Source: a virus
Taxonomy: Duplodnaviria; Heunggongvirae; Uroviricota; Caudoviricetes
Length of the DNA stretch: 25,754 bases
Reading direction: 5' to 3' (one strand)
IMG/VR virus record: IMGVR_UViG_2740892213_000014
Shown here in pieces: positions 1-11,473 of the stretch (its first letter is position 1; the number at the start of each line of letters is the position of its first letter). Made by a program: the position numbers and the translations under genes. The notes below the pieces were generated by a model. It did no database searches. It saw nothing but the letters and a program-made list of their open reading frames with translations, and was not told where the DNA came from.

Positions 1-993
1 CTAATCGATGGACAGTTTATGGACACTTTCAGCCAGCGGATTAAAGTTGATCGCGTCCAGTAAAAAGTCCGGCGAAAAATGAGCGTACGTCATTGTTTGC
101 TGAATCGTTGCGTGCCCCAGGATTCGTTGCAACGTAACAATATTTCCGCCATTCATCATAAAGTGTGTGGCAAATGTATGACGCATGACATGCGTAGCCT
201 GCCCCTTCGGCAAATCCGGTTTCACCTCCTGAAGAATCTCCCGGAACTTCAGATAATCAACCTGATACAATAACCCCGTTCGACGGGTTTTAATCAGAGG
301 CACGACCGAATCCGCCACAGGAACCGAACGGGATTTTCCGTTTTTGGTGTTAAAGAACGTCACCCGGTTGCCAACGATATGCTCTCCACGTAGTTCCGAT
401 GCTTCACTCCATCGGGCACCAGTAGAAAGACACAGAATGGCAACACGACGCGCATCACCCTCCAGTCGCTCAAGAAGCCGTTCAATCTCATCATCAGAAA
501 GAAAGGCCATCTCTGTGTTCTGAACTTTCAGTTTTCGTATACCGCGTACAGGGTTCGCGTTGTGAAAGACCTCAGCTTCAATCAGCACCGTGAACATGGT
601 AGACAGTACGCATAAGTCACGATTAATACTGGACGGCATTAATCCGGCCTGTAATTTCTCTGACCGATATTCAAGCATAAATTTTCGCGTCATCTGACTG
701 GCGCGAGGATCTCCCATTTCACGAACAACCTTCCCTAGCCTAACCCTGTAGCTATCCCCGTAAGCCTGATTACGCCCATCAAGCATCCACCACGCATCAA
801 GCAGCTCTGATAATCGCCGCTGATCAGCTGGCTTAGCCTGCCATGGCTTGTCATGAAAGTTCTGTAACACATACTTCTCAAACTCCTGAGCCTTTGATTT
901 CAGGGCAAAGATTTTTCGAATCCGCTTTCCTTCCGCCCCCTGCGGTCTGACATCGACCTGATAACGTCCGTCTTTGAGTTGCTTAATCGACAT
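1..993 (-). CDS. int: Phage tyrosine integrase (P2-type site-specific recombinase); stop codon at 1-3
   Basis: ORF track 1..1008 translation has tyrosine-recombinase C-terminal signature (…HVMRHTFATHF…LGHATIQQTMTYAH…). Start placed at ATG 993 (MSIKQ…) because the track start at 1008 is TTG, and a GGAGGGG Shine-Dalgarno lies just upstream of 993. Confidence 0.9.
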   Translation of the reverse strand: MSIKQLKDGRYQVDVRPQGAEGKRIRKIFALKSKAQEFEKYVLQNFHDKPWQAKPADQRRLSELLDAWWMLDGRNQAYGDSYRVRLGKVVREMGDPRASQMTRKFMLEYRSEKLQAGLMPSSINRDLCVLSTMFTVLIEAEVFHNANPVRGIRKLKVQNTEMAFLSDDEIERLLERLEGDARRVAILCLSTGARWSEASELRGEHIVGNRVTFFNTKNGKSRSVPVADSVVPLIKTRRTGLLYQVDYLKFREILQEVKPDLPKGQATHVMRHTFATHFMMNGGNIVTLQRILGHATIQQTMTYAHFSPDFLLDAINFNPLAESVHKLSID

Positions 994-1062
994 GATTAGC
1001 CCCTCCAACGGATAAATTAACTAAACACTCCTTGCGATATGTAATTCGCTCAATGTGTAGAG

Positions 1063-1404
1063 TCAGCCAACATTGCGGCCTGATCGGGGTGATTTTTGGG
1101 TAATACCGATTGAAACCTGATCGCCCTCCGACTGAATAGATCCATCAAGAGAGAGAGCCGGAGCAATCTGCCCGGCGACAGGTAGCGTCTTATCTTTTAT
1201 TAGCCACAGCATGTATTTTTCAAAGCGATCGACTTGCAGAACCGCCTCAACGATTTTTGCTCTAGCGTTCTTTTGCCCCGATTCGTAATTCCTTATGGTT
1301 GCCAAAGACAACCCAGTAATATCCGCAAACTGCTTTTGTGTTAACCCTTCCGCCTTACGTATCTGACGTAACTTTTTTGCGTAGTCTATTGACAAGATAA
1401 CCAT
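1063..1404 (-). CDS. C: Immunity repressor, P2 C-like (HTH)
   Basis: Start moved to internal ATG at 1404 (MVILSIDYAKKL…). HTH segment LTQKQFADITGLSLATIRNYESGQ and C-terminal GQIAPAL motif recalled from the P2 C repressor family. Adjacent to int and divergent from the cox-position gene. Confidence 0.75.
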   Translation of the reverse strand: MVILSIDYAKKLRQIRKAEGLTQKQFADITGLSLATIRNYESGQKNARAKIVEAVLQVDRFEKYMLWLIKDKTLPVAGQIAPALSLDGSIQSEGDQVSIGITQKSPRSGRNVG

Positions 1405-1447
1405 TTGAGTATTAACCTCTCGCACAAAGATAACCTTTTGGTTATCT
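1389..1447. promoter_or_regulatory. Immunity switch region: -35-like TTGACA (1389-1394) abutting half-site AGATAACC (1395-1402); perfect 20-bp palindrome AGATAACC-TTTT-GGTTATCT (1428-1447)
   Basis: Read directly from sequence. Three copies of an 8-mer lie between divergent repressor and cox-position genes, consistent with repressor/Cox operator sites in a P2/186-type switch. Confidence 0.45.
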
Positions 1448-1508
1448 TTACAAGCCAAAACAAACCATCACAAGGCGCGACAAGCGCACCAACGCAAGAG
1501 GATAACAA

Positions 1509-2030
1509 ATGCGGGACTTCATTGCCGATAAAGAGTTATCTGACCACCAACCACTTCAGGAAAGTGACGCACTCAGCGGATCCATTGATGCCGCCAACGA
1601 CGACGAGCACGAAGAAAACAAGAAAAAGCGTTCCTACAAAAAAGGAGCGACTTTGCGGCTGGATGGTCCGATCGCCGGGCTTTGCTCTCTGGAAAAAGGC
1701 GCGGCATATATTGGGCTAACAAAATCTGCACTGCGCGTAGCCATTCATCGCGGTCAAATGCCGGGACACAAGACGCGCACAAACCCGGAAGATGAAAACT
1801 CAGACGGAGTATGGTGGTTTAACGCCAAAGAGTGGGACAAGTTGGCTGATGAGCTACCAGAGCACGAGCCCCCAGAATGGCACAACTGGAAAAGTTACTG
1901 GACGTATGACCGCCAGAAAAGGAAGTTCTCTCCAGCTAATAAAGAAGACTGCCAGACCATTAACGGTAAGCGAGTTTATACAGGCAGAAGCTCAAAACTG
2001 GACCAACTCAGAAACAACAGAGGCAACTAA
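1509..2030 (+). CDS. Cox-position protein with excisionase/AlpA-like HTH, 173 aa (unusually long)
   Basis: AGAGGA RBS before ATG 1509. Central segment AAYIGLTKSALRVAIHRGQMPGHK resembles the Xis/AlpA-type HTH. Acidic N-terminal stretch and W-rich C-terminal part have no obvious P2 Cox equivalent. Confidence 0.55.
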   Translation: MRDFIADKELSDHQPLQESDALSGSIDAANDDEHEENKKKRSYKKGATLRLDGPIAGLCSLEKGAAYIGLTKSALRVAIHRGQMPGHKTRTNPEDENSDGVWWFNAKEWDKLADELPEHEPPEWHNWKSYWTYDRQKRKFSPANKEDCQTINGKRVYTGRSSKLDQLRNNRGN

Positions 2031-2034
2031 TCGT

Positions 2035-2457
2035 ATGAAAACAAACACGTCAGATTTCACAATAACTATTTCAAAAAATGACCAAGCATTAATTGATAAC
2101 CTGAAATACCTTGCGGAAAAACATAATAACGGACGAATTGCAATTAATTTACGACACATCACAGGAGTAACAATTGTAACCAGTTACTGGCATCTATATC
2201 TAATCGCTAAATCAGTACTTGAAAACAAAGATTCTGTTGTCAATGGAAGAGATATAGATACTCTTCCTGCACAAATCAAACCGATAGCCTATCAATTGCG
2301 TAATCGTTTTAAAAATGAAGGTGGGATTATATTTGACTTTCCCGCAGCTGTAGCCGTGAGCTTCTCTCGGGAGGATATACTTCACTCATTTCGTTTTGCT
2401 CTATCAGGTGACGAGACATTATGGCAGCTAGAAGATGCCGGGAGCAGCCCGGCATAA
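2035..2457 (+). CDS. Hypothetical protein, 140 aa, AT-rich moron
   Basis: Start moved from track 1792 to ATG 2035 (MKTNTSDF…), just after the stop of the previous gene. Upstream part of the track ORF overlaps the previous gene out of frame. Visibly AT-rich codon usage relative to flanks. Confidence 0.5.
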   Translation: MKTNTSDFTITISKNDQALIDNLKYLAEKHNNGRIAINLRHITGVTIVTSYWHLYLIAKSVLENKDSVVNGRDIDTLPAQIKPIAYQLRNRFKNEGGIIFDFPAAVAVSFSREDILHSFRFALSGDETLWQLEDAGSSPA

Positions 2458-2463
2458 ATCAAA

Positions 2464-2655
2464 TTAAAAATCAACCAGTTGTGTGACAGGTGGGTATTTA
2501 CGCTGAATTTTGTCAGTTACTAACGCCAGTAATATATGAATCTCTGCGTTTAATGCGTCTTTATCACCCGTCGTTTTTACCCTGGGAGGGTTAATGTTAT
2601 CCAGAGCAGCACTAAGTTCACTCAACAAATTAACAACTTTTTTATCTTCTGACAT
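2464..2655 (-). CDS. Hypothetical small protein, 63 aa, convergent with the 140-aa gene
   Basis: ORF track. AAGAGG Shine-Dalgarno on minus strand upstream of ATG 2655. 3' ends of the two genes are 6 nt apart. Confidence 0.45.
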   Translation of the reverse strand: MSEDKKVVNLLSELSAALDNINPPRVKTTGDKDALNAEIHILLALVTDKIQRKYPPVTQLVDF

Positions 2656-2792
2656 GAAAACCTCTTAACAATTTAATTAAACATAAGCCAGGACCTGAAC
2701 CGGCCAGTCCAAGTCCTAGACACACAAAAAAAATACCACAAATCAATACAAGGTGACACGAGTACACCTTACCGAAGGTACAGAGTTTTAAT

Positions 2793-6088: not shown

Positions 6089-8911
6089 ATGACGGCAGAG
6101 TACATCAGGGACTGGCAACAACCGCGCCACGCAGTGGGACGTGAAGGAACGGGGATCCCCGTTCCTGAATCCGCGCTTTCCTCCTGGCTGGATGCCTACC
6201 GGGCAGAGAACGAGCGCCGCCAGGAAATGGCTGATGCGGCGTTCTCCGCCACGCCGCTGGGCAACCTGATTAATAAAAGCCTGGATGCACAGGAAAAACA
6301 GGACAAAACCATCACACTGGCAGGAGACGCCAGAAAACAGGTACGCGGTGCGGTGGATGAAGCCATGGCCTCGCTGCGCCTGCTGCCGTCCTATCTGCGC
6401 GATCCGCTTATTCGCCACCTCTCCTTCCTGCGCAAAAAACAGGAAGCCGATCGCCGGAAAGGCAAAAAGAGCTGGCAGGCTGAACGCTACGCGCGCGGAA
6501 CCCTGCGCAAAATATTCGAACGTCTGGACCGCACCGACCACCGCTGGCTGACACCGGGTTATCGCTCCCTTGCCGGACGCGAACGCCTGGATGATTTGCT
6601 TTACCTGCCGCAGCTCAACAAGCACCAGATACAGACGCTGGCCACCATGACGGCGGCGATGTTCAGCAGCACCTTCGAAAAACTCTGCGATGGCTTTGGC
6701 GCGACTGATGGCGAGCTGACCATGGATGTAACGCTGAAGGCGTATCAGATGCTGGCCCGCATGGCGTTACACCTGCACGCCATGCCTCCGCATTATGACG
6801 CACTGACAACAGACAAAGACCGGAGGAACGAACCGGACACGGAGCTGCTGCCGGGCGCAATCCTTCGCCTGACCTGTGCGGAATGGTGGAAACGCAAACT
6901 GTGGCTGTTACGTTGCGAGTGGCGGGAAGAACAACTCCGCGCCGCCTGTCTGGTTTCCAGAAAAACATCGCCCTATCTGAGCCAGGACGCGTTAAGCGAG
7001 TTTCGCGCACAGCGCGAGAAAACACGCGATTTCCTGAAAAGTTTCATGCTGGAAAACGAAGACGGGTTCACGATTGATCTCGAGACGGTGTATTACGCGG
7101 GAGTAAGTAACCCGGTTCACCGTAAGGCAGAAATGATGGCCACCATGAAGGGGCTGGAACTTCTGGCCGAAGCCCGTGGCGACAAAGCGGTGTTTCTGAC
7201 TGTCACCTGCCCGTCAAAATACCACGCCACAACAGAGAACGGTCATCCGAATCCCAAATGGAACGGGGCCACCATGCGCGACTCCAGCGATTACCTGGTT
7301 AACACGTTTTTTGCGGCGGTCCGCAAGAAACTGAACCGCGACGGCCTGCGCTGGTATGGCATCCGCACGGTGGAGCCTCACCATGACGGCACCGTGCACT
7401 GGCATATGATGGTCTTTGCTCATCCGGAAGAAATCGACACCATTGTGTCCCACACCCGCGATATTGCCATTCAGGAAGATCGTCACGAGCTGGGTGATGA
7501 TATTACCCCACGCTTTAAGGCGGAGTACGTCGACGGCTCAAAAGGCACACCGACCAGCTACATCGCCACCTACATCGGGAAAAACCTGGACAGCCGTGCC
7601 GTGGATGGCATCGACCCGAAAACGGGCAAGCCACGCGTTGACCACGAAACCGGAAAATCAATGGCCGAGAGCGTGGAACGCGCCATCGGCTGGGCGCGCC
7701 TTCACCGGGTCCGCCAGTTCCAGTTCTTTGGTATCCCCTCCCGTCAGGTGTGGCGTGAACTGCGCCGCCTTGCCAGCCAGATGGCTCGCAACCCGGAAGG
7801 ACCGCAACGGCTGAAGGATGACGCAATGGACGCGGTTCTTGCTGCCGCTGATGCCGGATGTTTTGCCACCTACATAGAGAAACAGGGCGGCGTACTTGTT
7901 CCACGCAAGGACTACCTGATTCGCACCGCCTACGACCTCGCCGATGAGCTGAACGATTACGGTGAACAGAGCGTACAGATTTACGGGATCTGGTCACCGC
8001 TCATCGGGGAGTCTTCCCGCGTATGCACGCATCCGGACAACTGGAAGCTGGTAAGACGCAAACCGGAAGCGGAAGACAGCGCCCGCGAAAATGGTTTTGA
8101 CCTTCAGGGCGGCCCTGCCGCACCTTGGACTCGTGGCAATAACTGTCCCCGTGTACAGGAAACGGACAACAACGGGACAGAACAGCCGGAAGAACGGCCA
8201 GCACCGTGGCCGCAGCTTCCTGACGGCGTTGACGTGAACGAATGGATGCGCTCACTGAAACGGCACGAACGCCGGGCGCTGATGCGTTCGCTGCGTGACA
8301 AACAGGCAAAAAACAGCAGTGATGAAATGCAGAGCTGGACACAGAGCCGCAAACAGCAGCGGCCTTTGCCTGATAACCACGAATTACTCGCTAAAGAATG
8401 GCGGGAATCTGCCGAATCTCTCGGCCTGCATATCGGTGAACAGCAGATGCAGCACCTGTTACGGGGCGGCAGCCTGTACGTTGACGGCAGCATCATTGCA
8501 CCGCAGGGATTTGAAATTGTACGCAAACCGGATACCCGCCCGGACAGCCGAATCACGCAGCTCTGGCAGCGCCTGAGCCGTAATCACGGCGTAAGCAGCA
8601 CGGAGATCCGCCATAACCCGGTCGCCAGCTATCTGGAACAGCTGGGGGCATCAGACCCCGAAGCCGCCGCACGTCTGGCATCCACACTTCAGCAGGACCA
8701 GAACACCATGAACCCCCCCGTTACCGTGCTTTCTGACATGCTGCGCGCCATCCGCGACGCAGAGCACGCACAGAGAATCAGTGAAACCACTGAACGTGCC
8801 CGCCGCAAAGCAGACCTGCTGCGGGGTGGCCTGACCAGTGGAAACAAAAAACAGACAGAAACGGGATTCACAAATCCCGTAAATGAGCAAAAAACGCGCC
8901 GCGATATATGA
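6089..8911 (+). CDS. A: Rolling-circle replication initiator / replication endonuclease, P2 gpA family, 940 aa
   Basis: HUH-type motif VHWHMMVF and paired catalytic tyrosines in SYIATYIGKN (Y-x3-Y) are typical of gpA/phiX174-A-type initiators. Position between early genes and portal matches P2 synteny. Protein is longer than I recall for P2 A, with a C-terminal extension. Confidence 0.88.
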   Translation: MTAEYIRDWQQPRHAVGREGTGIPVPESALSSWLDAYRAENERRQEMADAAFSATPLGNLINKSLDAQEKQDKTITLAGDARKQVRGAVDEAMASLRLLPSYLRDPLIRHLSFLRKKQEADRRKGKKSWQAERYARGTLRKIFERLDRTDHRWLTPGYRSLAGRERLDDLLYLPQLNKHQIQTLATMTAAMFSSTFEKLCDGFGATDGELTMDVTLKAYQMLARMALHLHAMPPHYDALTTDKDRRNEPDTELLPGAILRLTCAEWWKRKLWLLRCEWREEQLRAACLVSRKTSPYLSQDALSEFRAQREKTRDFLKSFMLENEDGFTIDLETVYYAGVSNPVHRKAEMMATMKGLELLAEARGDKAVFLTVTCPSKYHATTENGHPNPKWNGATMRDSSDYLVNTFFAAVRKKLNRDGLRWYGIRTVEPHHDGTVHWHMMVFAHPEEIDTIVSHTRDIAIQEDRHELGDDITPRFKAEYVDGSKGTPTSYIATYIGKNLDSRAVDGIDPKTGKPRVDHETGKSMAESVERAIGWARLHRVRQFQFFGIPSRQVWRELRRLASQMARNPEGPQRLKDDAMDAVLAAADAGCFATYIEKQGGVLVPRKDYLIRTAYDLADELNDYGEQSVQIYGIWSPLIGESSRVCTHPDNWKLVRRKPEAEDSARENGFDLQGGPAAPWTRGNNCPRVQETDNNGTEQPEERPAPWPQLPDGVDVNEWMRSLKRHERRALMRSLRDKQAKNSSDEMQSWTQSRKQQRPLPDNHELLAKEWRESAESLGLHIGEQQMQHLLRGGSLYVDGSIIAPQGFEIVRKPDTRPDSRITQLWQRLSRNHGVSSTEIRHNPVASYLEQLGASDPEAAARLASTLQQDQNTMNPPVTVLSDMLRAIRDAEHAQRISETTERARRKADLLRGGLTSGNKKQTETGFTNPVNEQKTRRDI

Positions 8912-8987: not shown

Positions 8988-9947
8988 ATGAAAATTTGTA
9001 TCGACGACGGCTCCACCAACATCAAGCTGGCATGGACTGAGAATGGCGAACGCCGCAACGCCATCAGCCCGAACAGCTTCAAGTCGGAATGGTCTGCGCC
9101 GTTCGGTGGCATGCAGCCCGCGAACTACATGCTTGATGGCGTGCGCTATGGTTTTGATCCGGTCAGCGATCGCTTTGTCCAGACGACCGACACGCAATAC
9201 CAGTACAGCGATGTGAATGTAATCGCCATTCATCACGCGCTGGTCAAATCAGGCATCACGCCACAGGAGGTGGATGTGGTTGTCACCCTGCCACTGAGCG
9301 AGTATTTCGACACAAACGCACAGCCGGACATGGCCAACATCAACCGCAAAAAAGCGAACGTTATGCGCCCGGTGGAGTACCAGAACGGCGAAGCATTCAC
9401 TATCCGTAACGTGCGGGTTATGCCTGAATCCATTCCGGCTGGCTTTAAAGCACTGGCTGACATGAGTCCGTTTGAATCCCTGCTGATTGTGGATTTAGGC
9501 GGAACCACGCTGGATGTGGCAAAGGTTCAGGGGCAACTGGCAGGTATCAGCCAGGTGTTTTGCGATCCACACGTAGGCGTCTCCCTGATGGCCGGTGCCG
9601 TGCTGTCGGTGATGGCCGCTAACGGTATGCGTACCAGTCACCACATCGCCAATACCATTATCGAACATCGCCATGATGAAGCCTGGTTGCGCCAACACAT
9701 CCACAATGACGCGCATTACGCCAGCCTGATGGCGGTTATTCGTGAAAAGGAAGAAACACTGAAACAACGCGTGATCCGCGCGCTGGCGGGTTTTTCGGGT
9801 TACGGGCGGGTGATGGTTGTCGGTGGCGGGGCGGAGATTGTGGCACCCGCTATCCGCGAAGCCTGCGGAGTTAATGCGACTTTCATCGCGGACGGGGTGC
9901 CACAGTTTGCTCTGGTTAATGGGCTGTACGCAATGGACAAGGAGTAA
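8988..9947 (+). CDS. parM: Actin-like segregation ATPase, ParM/StbA family, 319 aa
   Basis: Long-range similarity to plasmid R1 ParM as I recall it (N-terminal IDDGSTNIKL, YSDVNV…HHAL, VMPESIPAG, DLGGTTLD, VGGGAE). AAGGAA RBS upstream. Confidence 0.8.
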   Translation: MKICIDDGSTNIKLAWTENGERRNAISPNSFKSEWSAPFGGMQPANYMLDGVRYGFDPVSDRFVQTTDTQYQYSDVNVIAIHHALVKSGITPQEVDVVVTLPLSEYFDTNAQPDMANINRKKANVMRPVEYQNGEAFTIRNVRVMPESIPAGFKALADMSPFESLLIVDLGGTTLDVAKVQGQLAGISQVFCDPHVGVSLMAGAVLSVMAANGMRTSHHIANTIIEHRHDEAWLRQHIHNDAHYASLMAVIREKEETLKQRVIRALAGFSGYGRVMVVGGGAEIVAPAIREACGVNATFIADGVPQFALVNGLYAMDKE

Positions 9948-9951
9948 ACCA

Positions 9952-10266
9952 ATGACGACACCAACCAGACGGATAAGTTTCTATCTGAAGCCAGTCGCCG
10001 TCAATAGTGAACGGGAGGCGTGTAATTACCTCGACAGCCTGCCAGCCTCTGAACGCAGCCGCGCGCAACGCGCGGCCTTTCTGGCCGGGCTGGCACTCAT
10101 AAAACGCGATCCTGCATTTGCCTATTGGTTGGCCGAATGGCCGGAAGAAGGAGCTGCGCCAGCCAAGAATAATATTCAGAGTAAATATGCCAGCACACCT
10201 GCCACCGGAAGCAATCACAGCACTAGCGAGATAAGAAAGAACATTCAGTCATTTTTCCCAGAGTGA
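9952..10266 (+). CDS. parR: ParR/StbB-like centromere-binding adaptor, 104 aa
   Basis: Start moved to ATG 9952 (MTTPTRRISFYLKP…), 5 nt after parM stop, with AAGGAG RBS. Segment DSLPASERSRAQRAAFLAGLAL resembles R1 ParR as recalled. Confidence 0.65.
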   Translation: MTTPTRRISFYLKPVAVNSEREACNYLDSLPASERSRAQRAAFLAGLALIKRDPAFAYWLAEWPEEGAAPAKNNIQSKYASTPATGSNHSTSEIRKNIQSFFPE

Positions 10267-11046: not shown

Positions 11047-11073
11047 AAAGCGCCTCAGGGGCGCTTTTTGTTT
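11047..11073 (+). terminator. Intrinsic terminator: 8-bp stem AAAGCGCC/GGCGCTTT followed by T-run
   Basis: Read directly from sequence, 35 nt after the last plus-strand accessory gene. Confidence 0.6.
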
Positions 11074-11099
11074 GCACAAAAGTGCACAAATTTGCACAA
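11073..11099. repeat. Three direct repeats of TGCACAA / GCACAA at ~10-bp spacing
   Basis: Read directly: tTGCACAAaagTGCACAAatttGCACAAt, in the presumed cos-proximal non-coding region. Confidence 0.3.
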
Positions 11100-11473
11100 T
11101 TTTTTTGAACGACTTTTTACCCTTCCGGCCCGCATGGCGGCTGGATCCGTCAAGGATCCGTGCGTGCACAAAAAAACGCGCTTTTTCTACGCGCAGGTGA
11201 CGGGGGAACAGCCCGCGTTTCAGGGGGTAAATAGCATTCCCTGAACGATGTCGCAGAGATACAACAGAATGGCTGTATTTCTCACGCTGAGCGTGAAAAA
11301 GACGTGAGGGCTTTTGATTTGATGGGGTGAAAGGTAAGGCCGTCAAAATCGCACTGAGACGGCGAGAACATGCAGTCAACGCGGTGGGATTGCGTAAGAG
11401 TCTGGCTGTCGATGATGGCAATAAGCAGGAAAGCGTCGTGAAATTATCTGATTGATACAGGAGCTGGAGAGTC

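Follow-up and report, generated by a model that had tools for sequence, protein, structure and literature searches.

The gene that directly faces the immunity repressor of this prophage encodes a protein of 173 amino acids, which is very probably a full-length, long-form Cox protein of a P2-like Escherichia coli prophage. Cox proteins serve both as excision directionality factor and as repressor on the lytic side of the genetic switch. The protein is long because a predicted disordered N-terminal tail and a basic C-terminal tail surround a Cox core. Comparison of related loci indicates that, within a clade of Enterobacterales prophages that share the same gene order, Cox is normally built in this long way. 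An earlier note on this DNA had remarked that the gene is about twice the expected size, and we find the same: 173 amino acids versus 91 for P2 Cox, a ratio of 1.9 (PMC3936717; the annotated P2 record gives the same length for P2 Cox).

The long cox gene occupies the P2 position between repressor and early operon

The window (the whole stretch of 25,754 nucleotides that was analyzed) comprises the left two-thirds of a P2-like prophage (Peduoviridae, P88/Xuanwuvirus-like). Over positions 1000–2500, it has 99.9% identity with two Escherichia phages, vB_EcoM-569R5 and vB_EcoM-705R2, and with an ST131 prophage record. The window begins at the stop codon of the integrase gene (int, positions 1–1008, minus strand), a tyrosine recombinase with Pfam Int_N and Phage_integrase matches. 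The next gene encodes the 113-residue immunity repressor C (positions 1063–1404, minus strand; Pfam HTH_3 and PHROG 147), whose counterpart in ON470623 carries an immunity repressor annotation. Divergent from C across a gap of about 105 bp is cox (positions 1509–2030, plus strand), an open reading frame matched by Pfam PF10743 and PHROG 23196 and the first gene of the early (lytic) operon. This is the P2 order int–C–cox. The related loci used for comparison were retrieved by exact-protein match, and the layout of the three genes is identical in nine of them and in P2. In the relatives with long Cox proteins, int, a C gene of ∼113 codons, a spacer of ∼105 bp, and cox follow one another; Salmonella, Serratia, and Yersinia share this order with E. 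coli. The cox region is present in 324 of 5426 complete E. coli genomes, chromosomal in every case and including ST131 strains and UTI89, and RefSeq/NCBI names the product “Cox family DNA-binding protein” (WP_001204238).

Long Cox proteins form an established family

We found 64 homologue matches, mostly of 173–192 amino acids, in Escherichia, Shigella, Salmonella, Yersinia, and Serratia. PHROG 23196 is itself a full-length family of 174 positions; the match to it takes in three features described below, namely the motif at the N-terminal tip, the basic patch, and the tail KEDC...RKSKLEQ. Across the Cox family, lengths of 91 (P2), 100, 112, 118, 126–129, 141 (P88), 161, 167, 180, and 173–192 amino acids occur. 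A profile search returned 351 Cox-family members, many of them of 119–192 amino acids, and the best 120 of the 351 were all at least 119 amino acids long. The 173-residue protein lies outside the small size of ∼80–91 amino acids (P2, W-phi, and HP1), and size is not a defining property of PF10743.

According to Nilsson, Cardoso-Palacios, and Haggard-Ljungquist (2011; PMC3448106), Cox/Apl proteins fall into four groups, of which Cox group 2 has larger proteins than the P2 group, with only six conserved residues in common; the prophage set of that study includes PhiECO5 of UTI89. PhiECO5 carries the same cox gene (173 amino acids, 98.8% nucleotide identity), and from its size we infer that PhiECO5 Cox belongs to group 2. 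The earlier note would count its reading as refuted if homologues of equal length proved typical of a known Cox/Apl subfamily, and the 173–192-residue homologues, PHROG 23196, and the larger group 2 are evidence that they are. Since prophages of E. coli, Salmonella, and Yersinia commonly carry the long form, with annotations already in place, we conclude that it is an ordinary protein rather than a new fusion.

The central part of the protein is predicted to be a complete Cox unit

Pfam PF10743 (Phage_Cox) matched residues 58–129 with 31.2 bits, above the gathering cut-off of 27.5, and the match spans profile positions 11–86 of 87. PHROG 23196 matched residues 1–173 over profile positions 1–173 of 174 (E 1.3e-116). 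We made two AlphaFold models, the better one from 56 sequences across the wider Cox family. This model places a strand at residues 58–60, helices at 61–68 and 72–81, a strand at 86–89, a long loop, a strand at 101–105, and helices at 106–119 and 122–130, with a core pLDDT of 71–87. The order of predicted elements in residues 58–130 is that of the P2 Cox crystal structure, β1-α1-T-α2-β2-L-β3-α3-α4 (PMC3936717). When the PDB was searched with Foldseek, P2 Cox (4LHF) came first (78 of 79 residues, target-normalized TM-score 0.68, rmsd 3.4, probability 1.00), and it was likewise the top match for the earlier AlphaFold model. Other excisionases ranked below it, namely the Klebsiella putative excisionase 2KVV, Pukovnik Xis, and RdfS, all with E >0.05. 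The link to 4LHF came through the fold search, as a direct sequence search of the PDB gave a chance match to NDUFA12 alone (E 3.4).

In the family alignment, residues 56–133 correspond to residues 9–91 of P2 Cox, the PPEWHxW segment is invariant family-wide, and both α3 and α4 are predicted. From the AlphaFold2 model, the Foldseek match, and the dN/dS values given below, we conclude that residues 56–133 (codons at positions 1674–1907, plus strand) are, as modeled, a complete Cox unit consisting of a winged helix-turn-helix and two C-terminal helices. In P2 Cox, the α3/α4 half drives filament formation (PMC3936717). The earlier note had placed an excisionase-like helix-turn-helix in the middle of a gene at the Cox/Apl position and had called for a domain search and structure prediction. 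Both were run, and the Phage_Cox match above cut-off, the P2 Cox-like fold with 4LHF as its nearest structure, and the gene order bear it out. The note had also described the C-terminal part as W/Y-rich; the aromatic residues are indeed present, but the part in question is mostly the normal Cox half, with 10 of the 14 W, Y, and F residues inside 56–133, and the stretch …WWFNAKEW…PPEWHNWKSYW… is largely the ordinary Cox oligomerization half.

Both extensions are conserved and evolve as coding sequence

The N-terminal extension (∼55 amino acids) opens with the conserved motif MRDFIADKELSD (codons 1–12, positions 1509–1544, plus strand), which is also conserved at synonymous sites. Its consensus is M(R/Q)xxIADKELSD, and M1, A6, L10, and S11 are invariant among 49 aligned homologues. 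An acidic, variable linker follows (codons 13–36, positions 1545–1616, plus strand), which is predicted to be disordered and carries in-frame indels among homologues. After it, the alignment shows a basic patch, NKKKRSYKKG, and then LRLDGP as the lead-in to strand β1 (codons 37–55, positions 1617–1673, plus strand), where K45, G53, and P54 are invariant and L49, R50, and D52 are at least 90% conserved in the 49 homologues. The acidic stretch ...DDEHEENKKKR... that the note had pointed out is thus present, residues 1–36 having a net charge of −10 and residues 37–48 one of +6. Residues 1–45 have a pLDDT <50 and are predicted to be disordered. The codon block 13–44, which overlaps the acidic linker, has a dN/dS of 0.24–0.66, and codons 37–55 have a dN/dS of 0.10–0.29.

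The true C-terminal extension, DRQKRKF...KEDC..I.GKRVY..RKSKLEQ (codons 134–173, positions 1908–2027, plus strand), is basic rather than aromatic, with a net charge of +7. Among the 49 homologues, R135, F140, K145, and R160 are invariant, and E146, D147, C148, G153, R155, Y157, L164, and E165 are at least 90% conserved. The AlphaFold2 model gives this region a low-confidence β-hairpin (131–142) and helix (163–171), with a pLDDT of 50–66 for residues 131–173.

Translation of the whole frame can be judged from the start site and from the substitution pattern. A Shine–Dalgarno sequence, AAGAGGA (positions 1496–1502, plus strand), lies 6 nt 5′ of the ATG at 1509. The sequence GAGGATAACAA-ATG is kept in nine of ten compared relatives, one of them only 35% identical in protein, and the tenth (locus L012) has GGAGAATACCAG-ATG, that is, a Shine–Dalgarno sequence and ATG of other sequence. 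The conserved L of LRxDGP falls at codon 40–66 among the relatives, and the frame is uninterrupted across these linkers. By the Nei–Gojobori method, dN/dS is 0.18–0.49 for the N-terminal extension (1–55), 0.05–0.10 for the core (56–133), and 0.14–0.29 for the C-terminal extension (134–173), with synonymous changes in excess of nonsynonymous ones (Fisher p 7e-6 to 0.04). Because the Shine–Dalgarno sequence and ATG are conserved, the indels are in frame, dN/dS in the extensions is below 1, and TTG49 (discussed next) is not conserved, we conclude from these comparisons that the 173-residue product from ATG 1509 is genuine and that purifying selection acts on the two extensions as translated sequence. 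The extra regions at both ends that the note had reported are therefore real.

Up to codon 90, the frame has just three possible start codons, ATG1, TTG49, and ATG84, and we consider it highly unlikely that the annotated start is wrong and that the product begins at TTG49 (positions 1653–1655, plus strand), giving 125 amino acids, or that long and short forms are both made. This codon does have a strong AAGGAG (positions 1641–1646) 6 nt 5′ of it, the Pfam Cox profile, if extended to its position 1, would reach to about residue 48, and one gene caller chose TTG49 on a truncated copy (P0065). However, only this copy of the gene could start there: the UTI89 gene, although 98.8% identical, has TTA as codon 49, and the equivalents in other relatives are TTA, CTG, GTT, or ATC, so that TTG49 behind AAGGAG was rejected as a conserved start. 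The AAGGAG is merely part of the Lys-Lys-Gly-Ala codons of the conserved basic patch, codons 1–48 contain a conserved motif and show the substitution and indel pattern of coding sequence, and ATG 1509 has its conserved Shine–Dalgarno sequence. We also judge it unlikely that the extra 5′ coding sequence is kept mainly as regulatory DNA or RNA (the lysogenic promoter, an operator, or a hairpin that sequesters the Shine–Dalgarno sequence), with a peptide of little function. Relatives with different immunity are almost identical in the block that runs from about −60 to +36, and codons 1–12 have no synonymous differences from loci L007, L011, and L014, although the synonymous sites of the core are saturated in those comparisons. 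Instead of protein function, a DNA or RNA element could lie behind this pattern, or it may simply mark a recombination block. The distant homologues L008 and L013 have altered DNA yet keep a peptide like I-A-[DE]-[EK]-x-[LS]-S-[DN]; since they keep a similar peptide with different codons, a protein-level role of the tip is also likely. Moreover, regulatory DNA would account for only 12 of the ∼55 extra codons; the others evolve as coding sequence. A hairpin, GGAUAAC/GUUAUCU, is predicted around the AUG as the minimum-free-energy fold, but we rejected it as a sequestering element, as shuffling does not weaken the fold appreciably (z = −0.99; of 200 shuffled sequences, 34 fold equally well or better).

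The earlier note had further suggested a fused or multifunctional switch protein. A true fusion, in which Cox acquired one or two independent functional modules from elsewhere (an antirepressor, say, or an adaptor that binds Int, or another DNA-binding domain), might be thought to fit the well-conserved C-terminal tail with its many invariant residues, the small β-hairpin and helix weakly predicted there, and the short conserved motif at the N-terminal tip. Neither extension matched any other family when Pfam was searched at E up to 1 and PHROG, NCBIfam, and PADLOC at E up to 0.1. The matches that passed were Phage_Cox and PHROG 23196, the full-length family of the same long Cox, while the sub-threshold NCBIfam matches and one weak PADLOC match all lie within residues 57–118. 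Among 1.84 billion representative proteins searched with a profile, the extensions were joined to nothing else; their segments occurred only in the long-form Cox family or in fragments and frameshifted copies of the same gene, which argues against fusion with a foreign domain. The N-terminal part is, in addition, predicted to be disordered, and the graded lengths of the tails in related Cox proteins fit elaboration of tails better than capture of a domain. We therefore regard a fusion as very improbable, and the note's word “fused” is not supported for extensions that have no other family or protein context in a family graded from 91 to 192 amino acids. “Multifunctional” is correct insofar as it already applies to ordinary Cox (PMC3936717), but nothing about it is specific to the 173-residue protein.

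Candidate Cox-binding arrays lie at the switch and near the attachment site

Between C and cox, copies of the immunity operator AAGATAACC (span 1394–1448, plus strand; direct at 1394–1402 and 1427–1435, inverted at 1440–1448) flank the −10 region of the early promoter Pe, whose −35 element, TTGACA (positions 1389–1394), overlaps the start of C. The layout matches that of P2 Pe/O1/O2, and the operator sequence is different in every relative with a different repressor. We placed Pe by eye from the TTGACA and by analogy with P2; a consensus promoter scan of the intergenic region returned no sigma-70-like site and thus found neither Pe nor the lysogenic promoter Pc. We considered AGTTATCT, in codons 8–12 of cox, as a fourth repressor operator on account of its resemblance to AAGATAACC, and rejected it, as it is invariant where the operators of the relatives differ completely.

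Four ACAA(G/A) boxes in exact 10-bp phase (positions 1450–1483, plus strand) lie between Pe and the cox start and form a candidate Cox-binding array. The four-box array is unique in the 25.7-kb window, and 0 of 100 shuffles matched it, even with one mismatch allowed. The boxes are conserved in relatives with different immunity, while the operators vary. Comparison with UTI89 shows a swap of the immunity cassette at ∼1175–1449, comprising the N-terminal half of C and the operators, and the right boundary of the swap falls exactly at the first ACAA box, which indicates that it is cox, rather than C, that the boxes accompany. Loci L008 and L012 have weak ACAA arrays or none, and an Arsenophonus relative (36% identity) has a two-box ACAA-n6-ACAA. 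Upstream of P88-type and 118-residue Cox genes the ACAA array is absent, and other repeats are found there. An ACAA triple at 11076–11099 of the window was set aside, as it is really a TGCACAA repeat beside a ParM-like module and is probably unrelated to Cox.

At the far end of int, P′-arm-type Int sites, ATGGACAGTTT and ATGGACACTTT, form a repeat inside the 3′ end of the gene (positions 8–29, plus strand). These two TGGACA repeats, 11 bp apart, have the core, spacing, and position of the annotated P2 P′ arm. The ends of the UTI89 prophage have a 20-bp core in common, AAAGCGCCCGCAGGCGCTTT. About 45–85 bp from the att core and directly before the int stop codon are repeats of the form ...ATAAG...ACAGG...ACAAA...ACAAA... 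in ∼10-bp phase. These candidate att Cox boxes, just left of window position 1 (locus L001, 1453–1493), were picked out by sequence match and comprise two perfect and about three degenerate ACAA in L001 and relatives. The Cox site mapped in P2 (annotated P2 record) occupies the same interval, from the att core to the P′ arm. An 11-nt match between the att and switch regions, AAGCCAAAACA, is about chance-level in 2 kb, and we do not count it as evidence.

Discussion

The long-form protein and P2 Cox are encoded by the first early gene, divergent from C and near int. They also share the fold and topology (predicted for the long form) and a conserved W-rich segment near the C-terminus of the core. 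The long form has candidate multicopy arrays at the switch and between att core and P′ arm, where such arrays are mapped for P2. They differ in sequence, with ∼21–31% identity, in the ∼55 N-terminal and ∼40 C-terminal extra residues of the long form, and in their boxes: TTAAAG/CNCA for P2 Cox, ACAA(G/A) in strict 10-bp phase for the candidates of the long form. The PhiECO5 prophage of UTI89 has an essentially identical cox gene but a different immunity cassette (the C N-terminal half and the operators). P88-type Cox (141 amino acids) and Cox proteins of intermediate length (118–152 amino acids) belong to the same family, occupy the same position, and are likewise extended, by an acidic/basic stretch at the N-terminus and a short basic tail; they are, however, only 22–30% identical to the long form, lack the MRDFIADKELSD tip and the KEDC...GKRVY...RKSKLEQ tail, and have other repeat motifs 5′ of cox.

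More distant proteins of the same kind are 186 Apl and λ Xis, small winged helix-turn-helix recombination directionality factors whose att sites are direct repeats spaced by one helical turn, a spacing described as typical for the sites of such factors (PMC7498355). The same source also has 186 Apl binding between the switch promoters. λ Xis has an unstructured tail as well (PMC3936717). Unlike the long-form extensions, however, the tails of these proteins are C-terminal and short, and the proteins have no detectable sequence relationship to long-form Cox. The disordered acidic tails of Hfq and SSB are loose precedents for the acidic tail.

By analogy with P2 Cox and 186 Apl, we propose that Cox would be made from the early promoter that overlaps the start of the repressor gene and would oligomerize on the four phased ACAA boxes at 1450–1483, behavior typical of recombination directionality factors (PMC7498355; PMC3936717). 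The oligomer on the boxes would shut off the lysogenic promoter and limit the synthesis of Cox itself. On the similar phased array that extends from the att core to the P′ arm of Int, the protein would likewise bind, bend the DNA, and direct excision. More speculatively, the basic patch and the basic tail may add nonspecific contacts to the DNA backbone, and the acidic tail with its conserved tip may tune DNA binding (by autoinhibition or DNA mimicry) or recruit a partner such as Int. A bolder version, to which we give a small chance, is that the extensions add a level of regulation not present in P2 Cox. The acidic tail and its 12-residue tip could, for example, mimic DNA within the molecule or serve as a peptide on which Int, the C repressor, or a host factor docks, gating the assembly of filaments on the ACAA boxes, and the same 36 nt could double as a cis-regulatory DNA or RNA element. 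If this were true, one sequence would be under dual constraint as protein and as nucleic acid.

For a full-length long-form Cox, the reading that we prefer, the consequences are as follows. The 173-residue annotation is correct, and trimming it to an internal start is unwarranted. No new kind of system is revealed; what is new is incremental, namely the ACAA boxes as candidate sites and the way the extensions are built, which are modest, testable additions. The rule that Cox has ∼90 amino acids holds for the P2 type and not for the whole family. The prophage family that carries the long cox gene is frequent in ExPEC lineages (ST131 and UTI89), and its phased boxes and defined extensions offer a ready design for truncation and footprinting work on how excision is coupled to the lysis–lysogeny switch.

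Exchange of the immunity region and possible constraint at the start of cox

When the prophage is compared with the UTI89 locus (L015), the C-terminal third of the immunity repressor gene C, together with all sequence rightwards from position 1450, is about 99% identical; the stretch between (window 1175–1449), which holds the operators and the DNA-binding N-terminal portion of C, is unrelated. The comparison shows that the immunity cassette (window 1175–1449) has been exchanged. Of a separate nature is the arrangement at L013, a more distant homologue locus, where four consecutive small HTH_3 repressor-like genes lie between int and cox (L013 1495–2896) in place of a single one.

Within cox itself, codons 1–12 (window 1509–1544) carry zero synonymous changes across three relatives that have diverged elsewhere, which suggests either an overlapping constraint at the nucleic-acid level or a recombination block.

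A likely variable slot downstream of cox

An AT-rich insert occupies window 1950–2700 (GC 36–42%, versus about 50% in cox) and contains a 140-aa ORF on the plus strand (2035–2457) and a 63-aa ORF on the minus strand (2464–2655), neither of which has a match in Pfam, PHROG, NCBIfam or PADLOC. The related phage P88 lacks this insert and carries a DUF4761 gene directly 3′ of cox. Because the slot holds different unknown genes in each relative compared, the region just 3′ of cox appears to be a cargo (moron) slot of variable content.

The att core

In this prophage family a 20-bp hairpin, AAAGCGCCCGCAGGCGCTTT, forms the att core; each end of the prophage carries a copy, between serS and dmsA. It lies at 650–669 in L015, is also found in L016, and in locus L001 (1390–1409) falls just left of window position 1. 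This hairpin probably supplies the serS terminator.

Replication protein and partition-like genes

The replication protein gpA (window 6089–8911) is 940 aa long, with its Phage_GPA domain limited to residues 179–503. Domain search gave no strong match to its large N- and C-terminal parts; the single further match was sub-threshold and fell within the GPA region.

Also within the integrated P2-like prophage are genes for a ParM/StbA-like actin ATPase (8988–9947) and a Plasmid_stab_B protein (9817–10266). In the region 11049–11105, three copies of a TGCACAA repeat at 10-bp phase (11076–11099) lie directly past a terminator-like hairpin; an additional copy occurs close to 11166. The ATPase and the Plasmid_stab_B protein may belong to a partition module in which the TGCACAA copies are the centromere-like repeat.
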